From the IMG/VR virus record IMGVR_UViG_3300028887_000105: a DNA stretch of 13,417 nt; one strand, written 5' to 3'. Below, one piece after another: positions 4,789 through 11,795 of the stretch; positions within the stretch are counted from its first letter, which is position 1, and every line of letters begins with the position of its first letter. Under the pieces are notes generated by a model that saw nothing but the letters and a program-made list of their open reading frames with translations, made no database searches and was not told the origin of the DNA. The stretch is from a virus. Lineage: Duplodnaviria > Heunggongvirae > Uroviricota > Caudoviricetes. The position numbers and the translations under genes are program-made.

Positions 4789-5182
4789 AGAATTAAAAGA
4801 ACAAATTATAGAGGCTGAAGAAAAACTTGACAATCTCAGAAAACAACTTCGTAAAGAAGAAAACGAGAAATTCTTAAATGAAATGGGTGATTATGTCGGA
4901 AAGTATTATGAAGAATGTTCTCCTAGTCATCGAGATAAACTTGTATATGTTCAAAAGGCTAATCCTGGAAGCCAACAGTTTTTTGTAACTGACATAGAAT
5001 ATGATTCAATGTTAATTGGTAATAATTATGTTAGTATTTCTAACCATTTCGTTCATTACGCTTCTATTGTTCTTGGAAACCTAAAAGAAATTTCAAAAGA
5101 AGAGTTTACACGAAGGGCCACTCAATTACTTAAGTTTGGATTAGAAGACTTGAAAGAAACAACAGGAATAACAGTATCATGA
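4778..5182 (+). CDS. Hypothetical protein with N-terminal coiled coil (134 aa)
   Basis: Heptad-like EELKEQIIEAEEKLDNLRKQLRKEE; 11-nt overlap upstream, ATGA overlap downstream. Confidence 0.8.
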   Translation: MEIEELKEQIIEAEEKLDNLRKQLRKEENEKFLNEMGDYVGKYYEECSPSHRDKLVYVQKANPGSQQFFVTDIEYDSMLIGNNYVSISNHFVHYASIVLGNLKEISKEEFTRRATQLLKFGLEDLKETTGITVS

Positions 5183-5583
5183 GAGACATTGAATTTAGAG
5201 GAAAACGAGAATCAGACGGAGAATGGATTTACGGCTATCTGTCTGATATAAACGAAATATGCAACGTCAATGAAGTTGCTATGCCCCGTGAGGAAGTAGA
5301 TGAAGATTCCGTTGGCCAATGGACTGGACTTTATGATGCACATGATCAGAAAATTTACGAGGGTGATATTATCAGGACCACTGATGAATATCAAACCATT
5401 GGTTATGTTGTCTGGTTACGCCAGGCAATGGGTTTTTGTATTGTGTGGAAGAACTGTGATACCAGGCTTGGGCACCGTGCCCGTGGTGGAGGATACGATT
5501 GGGATAGTTCAATTGAAGTTATAGGGAATATGACTGACAATTTTGAATTAATTCCCTGGCTAAATAAAAAAGAGAAAAATTAA
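5179..5583 (+). CDS. yopX: YopX family phage protein (134 aa)
   Basis: Classic YopX motifs MRDIEFRGKR, GEWIYGYL, VGQWTGLYD...IYEGDII and IEVIGN. Confidence 0.9.
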   Translation: MRDIEFRGKRESDGEWIYGYLSDINEICNVNEVAMPREEVDEDSVGQWTGLYDAHDQKIYEGDIIRTTDEYQTIGYVVWLRQAMGFCIVWKNCDTRLGHRARGGGYDWDSSIEVIGNMTDNFELIPWLNKKEKN

Positions 5584-9081: not shown

Positions 9082-9708
9082 ATGTTCGAAAACATTCAGA
9101 GTGCCTTTGATGGCATGTTTGGTAAGGTTGGTCCTGGTATGTGCCGCCTTACAATGAACGGCAACATTGCTGTTAAGTGTAGTAAGGGTTACAAGACCTA
9201 CAACGTATCTAAGGGTACATTGACAAATGTAACCAATTTCTGTTTTAATGTAGGCGATGAAATGTTCTTCATCATTCCTACCAATAAGGTAGAGGTTGGC
9301 GACATTATCCTTGTAGGTGGAAAGCCTAAGTGTGTAACTGAGGTCAACAAGAAGGTCATTACTGTTATCGACTATGAGAACAGTGAGGTACGTCAGGTTG
9401 TTCCTGAGCGCCACGTGTTCATGGGTAGCACTTACTTCTATGGTAAGATCGTATCTATGTTCGGCAACTCCTTCAAGAAGGGTAAGGGCCTTGGTAACAT
9501 CATGAAGATGATGATGTTCTCTCAGATGATGGGTGGTAATGGTTCCGCTAACAACGGCGGTATCGGCCAGATGCTTGCTATGTCCATGTTTATGGGTGGC
9601 AACAACTCCAATCCGTTTGAAGGTATGTTTGATTTCAATTTTGACGCTGGCCTTACAGAAGATGTAGAGGAAAGCGAAGATAAGGACGAAGAAACAGAGG
9701 AGGCTTAA
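9082..9708 (+). CDS. Unknown protein with beta-rich N-terminus, Met/Gly-rich repeat and acidic tail (208 aa); gene 1 of the vWA/PurA-like module
   Basis: KVEVGDIILVGGKPKCVTEV resembles an SH3/KOW-type hairpin; 11 Met in aa 141-182; all 16 Lys codons are AAG. Confidence 0.9.
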   Translation: MFENIQSAFDGMFGKVGPGMCRLTMNGNIAVKCSKGYKTYNVSKGTLTNVTNFCFNVGDEMFFIIPTNKVEVGDIILVGGKPKCVTEVNKKVITVIDYENSEVRQVVPERHVFMGSTYFYGKIVSMFGNSFKKGKGLGNIMKMMMFSQMMGGNGSANNGGIGQMLAMSMFMGGNNSNPFEGMFDFNFDAGLTEDVEESEDKDEETEEA

Positions 9709-9710
9709 TT

Positions 9711-10601
9711 ATGGGTGGTGGTAGTTTTACAACTAACAGTTACAAATCTTATGCTAAGACTATGGGTTATTCTTACGATAGTTCTAGTGGTAGAATTAGC
9801 GGACAGGAATATAAGGCCAGGAGACTGGACGAATCCCTTGATCCTAGCAAGTTCAAGATCCGTGAGTGCGTAAACAGTGATGAGCATCCTAATACCATTC
9901 CTGTTATCCTGGCATTGGATGTAACAGGTTCTATGGGTGAGGCTTGTCGTGAGACTGCAGAGGCACTTGGTGTTATTATGACAAACCTGTATAAGAAATT
10001 CAAGGACGTTGAGTTTTGTATTATGGGTATTGGTGACCTTGCATATGACGACGCACCTATCCAGATGAGCCAGTTTGAATCTGATGTCCGTATTGCGGAA
10101 TCATTGGATAAGATCTTTGTTGAACACGGTGGTGGTGGTAACGCTTTCGAGAGTTATACCGCAGCCTGGTACATGGGTCTTAAGCATACGAAGTTGGACT
10201 GCTATGACAAGCAAGGACGTAAGGGTATCATTATTACAATGGGTGATGAGCCTATGAATCCTTATTTGCCAGTGCATAACTTGAACAATGCAATTGATGC
10301 ACATGAACAGGCTAACGTTGAAACACGTCAACTTTACGAAGAGGCTTCAAAGAAGTTTGACATTTTCCACATTGCCGTGGACAGTCCTCACGACTGTTAT
10401 CATATGTACAAAAATGAGATAGAAAAATCATTTGGTCAACTCCTTGGCACCAGACTTAAGGTTTCAACGTTGAACAATCTTTCCAAGACAATCGAGGATT
10501 GTATTTGTGAATCTGTTGGTACCTGTGGTACTGAACTCCTTGTTGATGAGGTTAAGCCTGAGGTGAATACCGTTAATGAGAATGGTGAGATCATTTGGTA
10601 A
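9711..10601 (+). CDS. Stand-alone von Willebrand factor A (vWA) domain protein (296 aa)
   Basis: Beta-strand plus MIDAS VILALD70-V-T72-G-S74, loop GGGGNAFESY, and IIITMGD179EP. Confidence 0.85.
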   Translation: MGGGSFTTNSYKSYAKTMGYSYDSSSGRISGQEYKARRLDESLDPSKFKIRECVNSDEHPNTIPVILALDVTGSMGEACRETAEALGVIMTNLYKKFKDVEFCIMGIGDLAYDDAPIQMSQFESDVRIAESLDKIFVEHGGGGNAFESYTAAWYMGLKHTKLDCYDKQGRKGIIITMGDEPMNPYLPVHNLNNAIDAHEQANVETRQLYEEASKKFDIFHIAVDSPHDCYHMYKNEIEKSFGQLLGTRLKVSTLNNLSKTIEDCICESVGTCGTELLVDEVKPEVNTVNENGEIIW

Positions 10602-10630
10602 GTTAGTTTTTATTTTTTAATTTGTTATTT

Positions 10631-11716
10631 ATGTCGAAGCAAGCGAGAATCGTAATTGGAAGCAATTATGGTGATGAAGGTAAGGGTACAGTAGTGGCCC
10701 ATTACACAAAGAACAGTGTTGGTAGTGTTGTAAACATCCTTACAAATGGTGGTGCCCAAAGAGGACATTCTATTTTAACAGAAGGCGGTAGCATTACATT
10801 TAAACATTTCGGTTCTGGAACATTCCATGGAGCGGATAATTATTATTCCCGCTTCTTCATTTTGAATCCTATGCAGTTTGTTCAGGAATACGATAAATTA
10901 CTCGTTAAACCTAAACATATCTACAGGGATAGAAGGTGTCTGTGGAGTACACCTTATGACTCTATGGCTAATATGATCATGGAGCAAAAAATGGATAGAA
11001 AGGCATCTTGTGGTATGGGTATATGGAATACCATTAAAAGATACAGGGAAATGCAGACATTCCCATTTGATGATTTCCTCAATATGTCTAATCCTGAAAT
11101 ATATTTGTGTCATGTACGCAATTATTACGATAAGATACTTGGTGAAATTCCGAGAGAATGGAAAATGATGTGGAGTTCTCATACCTTGCAAATACATTTC
11201 ATTAACGATTGTTGGTTTATGTATCATAATACCGAGTTAATGAATGATCTTGGTAGTCTTGATTATGACAACTACATATTTGAGAATGGCCAGGGCCTGT
11301 TGCTATGTGACACAGGAAGAGATACATATGACACCACACCGTCCAATACTGGTAGCCTATATGCTGCAGAACTGTTGAAGGAATTGAAAGACGTAGAGGT
11401 TACCGCGCACTATGTTACGCGTCCGTATCTTACGAGACACGGTGACGGTGGTATCAATGGAACTTATGACGTTGGTAGAGATTTCATTTCTGAGGGTATT
11501 AAGGAAGATAGAACAAACCGATATAATGGGTTCCAGGGTAAATTCAGATATGGATTTTTGGATATTAATGGTTTGAAGGATAGAATTATTGATGACAATA
11601 AGGAAATGTTTAAGGTAGAATTGGAAGTTACGCATTGTGATGAAATGGATAGAATTAATGAATTTAAAAAGTCATTCCGCAATGTAAATACTTATGACAG
11701 TGCATTAATTAAATGA
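10631..11716 (+). CDS. purA: Divergent adenylosuccinate synthetase family (PurA-like) ligase (361 aa)
   Basis: GSNYGDEGKG, NGGAQRGH, FENGQGLLL, TTPSNTG, YLTRHGDG, FRYGFLD and VTHCD correspond in order to PurA motifs. ATG at 10631 preferred over TTG at 10622. The symbol marks family only; orthology is not shown. Confidence 0.88.
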   Translation: MSKQARIVIGSNYGDEGKGTVVAHYTKNSVGSVVNILTNGGAQRGHSILTEGGSITFKHFGSGTFHGADNYYSRFFILNPMQFVQEYDKLLVKPKHIYRDRRCLWSTPYDSMANMIMEQKMDRKASCGMGIWNTIKRYREMQTFPFDDFLNMSNPEIYLCHVRNYYDKILGEIPREWKMMWSSHTLQIHFINDCWFMYHNTELMNDLGSLDYDNYIFENGQGLLLCDTGRDTYDTTPSNTGSLYAAELLKELKDVEVTAHYVTRPYLTRHGDGGINGTYDVGRDFISEGIKEDRTNRYNGFQGKFRYGFLDINGLKDRIIDDNKEMFKVELEVTHCDEMDRINEFKKSFRNVNTYDSALIK

Positions 11717-11727
11717 TTTGGATCAGT

Positions 11728-11744
11728 TTGGCACGGTATTTGTA
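11728..11744 (+). promoter_or_regulatory. Sigma54-like -24/-12 element (TTGGCACGGTATTTGTA)
   Basis: Intergenic; perfect TGGCACG -24 box with GG-N10-GT spacing (canonical is GG-N10-GC). Confidence 0.45.
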
Positions 11745-11752
11745 GAGATAAT

Positions 11753-11795
11753 TGCGAGGGTGGATTGAATGTTTTACTCTCGCAGTTTTTGTTTT
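11753..11795 (+). terminator. Intrinsic terminator after the PurA-like gene
   Basis: Stem TGCGAGGGT (11753-11761) / ACTCTCGCA (11776-11784) with one G-U pair, followed by GTTTTTGTTTT. Confidence 0.75.

Follow-up and report, generated by a model that had tools for sequence, protein, structure and literature searches.

Adenylosuccinate synthetase, PurA (EC 6.3.4.4; PF00709; TIGR00184/PRK01117; E. coli structures of the 1ADE/1CG0 series), and the phage-borne, shortened PurZ and PurZ0 of the same superfamily, which are the succino-amino-deoxyadenylate synthases of Z-genomes (NF038379; PHROG 1211; PDB 6FM1, 7ODX, and 7VF6), are the closest described relatives of the gene considered here. In E. coli PurA, D13, K16, and H41 serve phosphoryl transfer to O6 of inosine monophosphate (IMP), with D13 as the base that deprotonates N1 of IMP. 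Q224 and T239 grip the base and the 5′-phosphate, R143 enters the IMP site from the second subunit, and V273, T300, T301, R303, and R305 recognize L-aspartate. PurZ has Ser at the position of D13, uses aspartate as the donor, and travels with DatZ, MazZ, and DpoZ. We analyzed a 13,417-nucleotide stretch of Caudoviricetes DNA (IMG/VR virus record IMGVR_UViG_3300028887_000105; hereafter, the window, with its first nucleotide as position 1), in which the open reading frame (ORF) at 10631-11716 encodes a PurA-like protein. It has the fold and motif order of PurA, including GDEGKG with the catalytic Asp, the catalytic His, Q224, and T239, but differs from PurA in that V273, T300, T301, R303, and R305 are altered or deleted, N38 is replaced by Q, T129 is replaced by C, and the C-terminus is truncated in the subclade of this copy. 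The PurA-like gene also differs in always standing behind a gene for a vWA protein and in coexisting with true PurA in cellular genomes. These features suggest, with a probability that we put at roughly 0.5, that the product of the gene is the catalytic subunit in a mobile module of three genes and acts as a PurA-type ligase that uses an amine other than aspartate. The module consists of a Met/Gly-rich protein, a vWA protein with a metal-ion-dependent adhesion site (MIDAS), and the PurA-like enzyme, and it is not described in the literature that we found. The gene and its motifs are as follows.

10631..11716, + strand: gene of the PurA-like, putative ligase, 361 amino acids, last gene of the module, assigned by PF00709, PHROG 1211, an AlphaFold2 model, and Foldseek
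10670..10687, + strand: P-loop GDEGKG, translation checked; D15 corresponds to the catalytic Asp D13 of E. coli (143/143 members)
10745..10768, + strand: NGGAQRGH; H46 corresponds to the catalytic H41 (143/143), and Q43 replaces the IMP-phosphate ligand N38 (142/143)
11006..11026, + strand: loop SCGMGIW where PurA has TTGRGIG, its IMP loop; T129 becomes Cys127 (Cys in 135/143, the preceding Ser in 133/143)
11282..11296, + strand: ENGQG; Gln221 corresponds to the base-contacting Q224 (E and Q in 143/143)
11336..11350, + strand: TPSNT; Thr236 corresponds to the 5′-phosphate ligand T239 (T in 143/143)
11426..11443, + strand: YLTRHG; His270 in place of V273 of PurA (His in 143/143)
11513..11563, + strand: amine-donor loop TNRYNGFQGKFRYGFLD in remodelled form, with Q302 at T301, no residue at R303, F at R305, and an aromatic residue at T300
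11630..11641, + strand: THCD in place of the guanine-specificity motif TKLD; K331 becomes H (126/143), and the Asp is kept here

The gene was confirmed as a real relative of adenylosuccinate synthetase, with a similarity far beyond chance. Residues 7-318 matched PF00709 in Pfam at E = 1e-18 (67.8 bits vs. a cutoff of 27), and the protein matched PHROG 1211 at E = 3e-35. An AlphaFold2 model built on 62 relatives had a predicted local distance difference test score (pLDDT) of 95. In Foldseek, the model aligned with solved bacterial PurA at a template-modeling (TM) score of ~0.72 (E = 1e-17) and with the PurZ0 and PurZ structures at 0.64-0.69. The family profile was searched against PDB, with bacterial PurA as the best sequence/profile match (E = 6e-35), archaeal PurA matched over the N-terminus only (E = 1e-16), and the PurZ0/PurZ structures matched at only E ~1e-4. 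The identity to PurA is 17-20%. The relatives numbered 4785 when clustered at 90% identity and 4614 representatives when clustered at 50%, 917 of the latter with E <1e-30, and almost all of them are unnamed or labelled "adenylosuccinate synthase" in the databases. The GenBank phages that carry the gene include ~200 Mycobacterium phages of cluster C, T4-like Rhizobium phages, Vibrio phage Va1, and one faecal phage. No functional publication on the PurA-like family was found in the literature; a paper on NARP3 and a preprint on dZ in metagenomes deal with other matters. The ORF runs from the ATG at 10631 to the stop at 11716, and an alternative upstream start, the TTG at 10622, is less likely. 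In five IMG/VR loci (L034, L036, L037, L045, and L073), the PurA-like frame is interrupted early under translation table 11, either because these phages recode a stop codon or because the copies are broken, it may be.

Alignment of 143 family members with E. coli PurA, three other canonical PurA, and phiVC8 PurZ revealed how the active site is divided into kept and replaced parts. One row entered as canonical (L169) proved to be a wrong ORF; it was disregarded in this alignment and set right for the tree. The motif G12-D13-E14-G15-K16-G17 of the Mg-NTP P-loop is present in 143/143 members, except for one Ala at E14; K16 (K18 here), H41, E221, Q224, and T239 are likewise kept in 143/143. The full IMP site of PurA is incomplete: Q224 and T239 remain, while N38 is replaced by Q in 142/143 members, T128 by S in 133/143, and T129 by C in 135/143, and R143 has no alignable or conserved counterpart in the family. 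The L-aspartate site is altered at every position family-wide, with V273 replaced by H and T301 by Q in 143/143 members, R303 deleted in 143/143, T300 replaced by F, Y, H, or W, and R305 replaced by L, F, or I. G298 is replaced by N in 141/143 members. The NKxD motif of PurA is TH-x-D/N in the family, in which K331 is replaced by H in 126/143 members and position 333 is N in 85 and D in 58, including this copy. The clade-specific residues of this copy are Q43, C127, H270, Q302, and the empty R303 column. The pattern suggests that the catalytic chemistry and a purine-nucleotide acceptor site are kept and that the aspartate site has become a neutral, partly aromatic pocket. Thus, the proposal of a kept catalytic core with rewired aspartate recognition, made in a first-pass annotation from the sequence alone, holds for the 143 aligned members and not for this copy alone.

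Translation of the window placed all the motifs of the first-pass annotation where it had located them, and its residue equivalences with E. coli PurA agreed with the real sequences of E. coli PurA and phiVC8 PurZ. The donor loop that it described is present, but its start at 11507 lies two codons (D-R) before the loop proper at 11513-11563. The short C-terminus without an S-T-G-P motif is also present in this copy, but it is a trait of the gut-phage subclade and not of the family, as an S-x-G-P-T-R tail is kept in more distant members.

Curated models, phylogeny, and gene co-occurrence separate the family from both described enzymes. The NCBIfam equivalog models for PurA scored far below their cutoffs (PRK01117, 45.9 vs. 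402 bits; TIGR00184, 37.5 vs. 395.55 bits), and the PurZ model NF038379 gave 11.9 vs. 300 bits (E = 0.09). A maximum-likelihood tree, computed from 73 rows of the family with five sequences of canonical PurA and one of PurZ but without archaeal PurA and PurZ0, placed the PurA-like family on one side of a branch with a support of 98/93 and canonical PurA on another branch (100/98), with PurZ on a long branch and the window copy within a gut-phage subclade. Among the cellular genomes with the module, canonical PurA was also present in 9/10, scoring 540-641 bits compared to 86-176 bits for the PurA-like copy. Given this co-presence of true PurA, the PurA-like gene is an extra paralog and not the housekeeping enzyme. 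These three lines of evidence bear out the view that the protein is neither PurA nor PurZ. A divergent but true adenylosuccinate synthetase, carried as an auxiliary metabolic gene that boosts AMP synthesis in infection, would fit the database label, the intact catalytic core, and the finding of PurB, which performs the finishing step of the pathway, in 5/5 cellular genomes searched for it. This explanation is very unlikely, as the aspartate-site residues are all replaced in 143/143 members, the scores are about one ninth of the equivalog cutoffs, the family forms a separate clade in the tree, and AMP synthesis has no place for the vWA protein, an obligatory partner here.

That the enzyme is of the PurZ type and serves DNA with 2-aminoadenine (Z) might be supposed from the label of PHROG 1211, "2-aminooxy adenylosuccinate synthetase," and from the short C-terminus, which resembles that of PurZ. 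The D13 column, where the first-pass annotation had placed a Ser in PurZ and had therefore judged Z-base synthesis not to be indicated, argues strongly against it: real phiVC8 PurZ has S14 in this column, whereas Asp (D15 here) is found in 143/143 family members. The PurZ model score and the profile match to PurZ structures (~1e-4 vs. 6e-35 for bacterial PurA) point the same way, and the aspartate site that PurZ needs is gone. DatZ, MazZ, and DpoZ had no match among the window genes, and none of them was a conserved neighbor; the family travels with the vWA protein instead. An HD protein at 1113-1595 was considered as a DatZ candidate and rejected, as it had no PHROG match and was not a conserved neighbor. 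With all of this evidence, a PurZ-type function is hardly credible.

For the reading that we favor, that of a PurA-type ligase with a non-aspartate amine, the following mechanism may be proposed. The enzyme would phosphorylate the C6 oxygen of an IMP-like nucleotide, and the amine would then displace the phosphate. The nucleoside triphosphate (NTP) would be GTP or ATP, with GTP favored by the Asp of the NKxD motif, which is retained here. The amine would be a neutral donor other than aspartate, held in a pocket lined by His270, Gln302, Asn296/299, and one aromatic residue. With such a donor, the product would be an N6-substituted or directly aminated adenine-type nucleotide and not adenylosuccinate. 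Both the vWA protein and the product of the third gene would be obligatory partners that could serve as scaffold, substrate presenter, or regulator. These two proteins are encoded upstream of the enzyme.

9711..10601, + strand: gene of the vWA/MIDAS partner, 296 amino acids, phrog_2971 at E = 3e-53, AlphaFold2 pLDDT of 87.5, vWA fold by Foldseek
9918-9932, + strand: MIDAS motif D70-x-T72-x-S74 of the vWA partner, from the alignment
10128-10157, + strand: GGGGN..ESY of the vWA partner, invariant in the alignment
10242-10253, + strand: GDEP of the vWA partner, from the alignment
9082..9708, + strand: gene of the Met/Gly-rich protein, 208 amino acids, third gene of the module, ending 2 nucleotides before the vWA start

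The PurA-like gene was shown to be inherited together with the vWA gene. The vWA gene adjoins the PurA-like gene in every one of the 83 loci retrieved with the enzyme (80/80 for those of IMG/VR). The other neighbors in the window were conserved in 0/83 of these loci. In the reverse direction, a search of GTDB with the vWA protein alone found 80 loci, and the PurA-like gene was adjacent in essentially all of those with enough sequence. The ~160 module loci are spread over bacteria and unrelated phages (Mycobacterium cluster C, Rhizobium, Vibrio, and gut); Mycobacterium phage I3, Rhizobium phage RHph_TM30, and Vibrio phage Va1, for example, each encode a vWA homolog immediately before the PurA-like gene. 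The sole family match of the vWA partner was phrog_2971, with none in Pfam or NCBIfam, and Foldseek identified its AlphaFold2 model as a vWA domain of the integrin beta-I type. Its MIDAS is intact (D70-x-T72-x-S74 plus D179 in the alignment). M1-G2-x-G4 and Y14 are invariant in the alignment, and the window copy begins with MGGGSF. Clusters of the AlphaFold database (AFDB) named VWFA match the partner from residue 1, the top cluster with an added U-box; AFDB A0A2A4U119, for instance, is a 526-residue protein with the same vWA fold from residue 1 (27% identity) and a C-terminal U-box. The window copy ends with GEIIW (10584-10598), and the gut-phage clade keeps G-E-I-x-W after a variable disordered linker, an end that looks like a docking tail; distant vWA members have different C-terminal ends. 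Complex prediction for the enzyme and the vWA partner scored 0.00, which gives no verdict and is not evidence either way.

The properties of the vWA partner bear on two further explanations. In the first, the donor would be a protein amine, most simply the alpha-amine of vWA Gly2 after removal of Met, and the purine would be joined via C6 to the N-terminus of the vWA protein itself or of some target presented by it. Consistent with this explanation are the M-G-x-G-x-(W/F/Y) start of the vWA protein in all ~160 loci despite an overall identity down to ~30%, the strict co-inheritance of the two genes, a donor pocket that lost both carboxylate-binding arginines and gained neutral or aromatic residues suited to a peptide, and the AFDB cluster that joins the same vWA fold to a U-box, a protein-modifying domain. 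Given that the vWA N-terminus is perhaps conserved for folding, MIDAS capping, or stability and that a small-molecule product is the simpler reading in NAD-linked operons, we regard this explanation as unlikely. Its fuller form, in which a GTP-activated purine C6 would be joined to the vWA N-terminal Gly or to a vWA-presented host protein for use in an NAD/ADP-ribose-centered conflict, is decidedly unlikely.

In the second, the protein would act on its vWA partner as a switch with NTPase activity or as a chaperone, with the PurA fold put to new use in a regulatory GTPase, by analogy with MoxR-vWA pairs. Modules of the MoxR-vWA/TerY type resemble this one in having a MIDAS vWA protein beside an NTP-using enzyme and, in one variant, a kinase-like protein. 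NTPase chaperones are typical partners of vWA/MIDAS proteins, an alternative third gene described below carries the J-domain signature of Hsp70 co-chaperones, and the Met/Gly-rich tail of the usual third protein is reminiscent of chaperone tails. The NTP-using partner here is, however, a PurA fold with an acceptor site and not an AAA+ ATPase, and MoxR, PP2C, and Ter genes are absent here. Moreover, D13, Q224, and T239 contact the acceptor and are dispensable for GTP hydrolysis, yet they are invariant in 143/143 members, and new invariant residues line the donor pocket. A switch or chaperone function is thus unlikely.

Among the module proteins, the Met/Gly-rich one evolves most slowly: in a 374-kb relative, its identity was 91%, whereas the vWA protein reached 75% and the enzyme 71%. 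Its N-domain is beta-rich and conserved and is followed by a segment rich in Met and Gly and by an acidic tail; in order, the globular domain leads into a linker rich in G, N, and M, then into an F-x-G-x-F-D motif, and finally into an acidic tip. The layout is reminiscent of the tails of single-stranded DNA-binding proteins. Searches of Pfam, PHROGs, NCBIfam, and PADLOC gave no family for it, the ESM Atlas gave viral clusters without a name and nothing else, and PADLOC gave no match for any of the three module proteins of the window. Its gene was found upstream of the enzyme-vWA pair in 119/164 loci, and very distant versions were found in Rhizobium and Vibrio phages. In 22/164 loci, its place is taken by a gene for a J-domain (HPD) fused to a kinase-like domain, which is therefore a pseudokinase, as the HRD and DFG aspartates are not conserved. 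The J-domain loci (L001:2478-3608, L049, L069, L076, L081, and L146-L162) were mostly found at the base of the family in the tree, and the loci of the Met/Gly type formed the crown clade.

The three genes of the window are separated by gaps of only 2 and 29 nucleotides. Contigs from four bovine-gut RNA libraries matched the three module genes at 92-100% (9082-10817), and three of these contigs, with 0 differences, bridge the junctions 9708/9711 and 10601/10631, which is a hint of co-transcription of the module. Parts of the 3′ half of the PurA-like gene were without cover in the four RNA runs, a gap that is not interpretable. Two elements follow the PurA-like stop.

11729-11743: sigma-54-type -24/-12 element TGGCACGGTATTTGT, a perfect match, 13 nucleotides after the PurA-like stop
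11750-11787: hairpin of 15 pairs with a T-run, 3′ of the PurA-like stop and after the sigma-54-type element

Given these two elements, the enzyme gene ends its transcription unit. A scan for sigma-70 promoters gave no signal above that of shuffled sequences. Small phage genes, all on one strand, make up the window, which has a G+C content of 0.29-0.42 and, by its contig record, belongs to a 254-kb jumbo phage from a bovine gut sample. No near-identical DNA was found in the phage collection, and the only other annotated genes of the window are Pfam matches to Phage_T4_Y07B and YopX (2075-2314 and 5179-5583). The module of this phage lies in an accessory, early-type gene block. Outside the window, ~3.7 kb downstream of the PurA-like gene, a 70-residue gene (14766-14978 of its own contig) has a weak, Tad2-like Pfam match. 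Tad2 is an anti-Thoeris sponge family. The genes all around it are small and lack annotation, which is a pattern of accessory or counter-defence regions.

Clustering of all the ORFs that flank the loci identified NrtR (Nudix plus NrtR_WHD) as a fourth frequent neighbor, in 53/79 GTDB-derived loci. NrtR is an ADP-ribose-responsive repressor of NAD genes. PncA, PncB, NadE, and NadV were scattered near the module in the GTDB-derived loci, and NrtR or one of these four was found ≤6 kb from the module in 55/79. The gene order is pncA, nadV-like, J-kinase, vWA, PurA-like in an isolate Clostridium locus and NrtR, J-kinase, vWA, PurA-like in Pyrinomonadaceae and Desulfosporosinus, and NAD-salvage genes lie 4 kb upstream in Rhizobium phage RHph_TM30. 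This company is kept by many of the bacterial and Firmicutes-phage copies of the module. Because so many copies stand beside NrtR and NAD-salvage genes, we think that the module serves adenine-nucleotide or NAD-related metabolism, and it probably acts there during phage-host conflict.

Several points weigh against the picture of a co-transcribed, NAD-associated ligase with a new amine donor. R143, which completes the IMP site of PurA, has no counterpart, and T129 is Cys, so the acceptor may not be a plain 5′-monophosphate. The activity, the NTP, the acceptor, and the amine are all deduced from conservation, for every family member. The RNA libraries may contain DNA, and transcription is therefore not proven. 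An NAD gene is nearby in just 6/80 of the IMG/VR loci closest to this phage, and in this genome none was found within 10 kb of the module. The NAD link therefore holds at the level of the family, varies by clade, and is not demonstrated for this copy.

Annotation pipelines currently mislabel the members of the PurA-like family as adenylosuccinate synthase or PurZ. PF00709 has so far been treated as holding two activities, PurA and PurZ/PurZ0, and the PurA-like family is a third, very large branch, with copies by the thousand in gut, rumen, soil, and marine phages and bacteria. Tractable systems in which it can be approached are Vibrio phage Va1 and the cluster C phages that infect Mycobacterium smegmatis. 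The reaction, once solved, would represent a new nucleotide, or nucleotide-protein, chemistry in phage-host metabolism. Should a protein prove to be the target, it would be a previously unknown N6-linked nucleotide-protein modification, in phages and in bacteria. Knowledge of the reaction could also bring to light an additional participant in the phage-host competition for NAD+ and adenine nucleotides.

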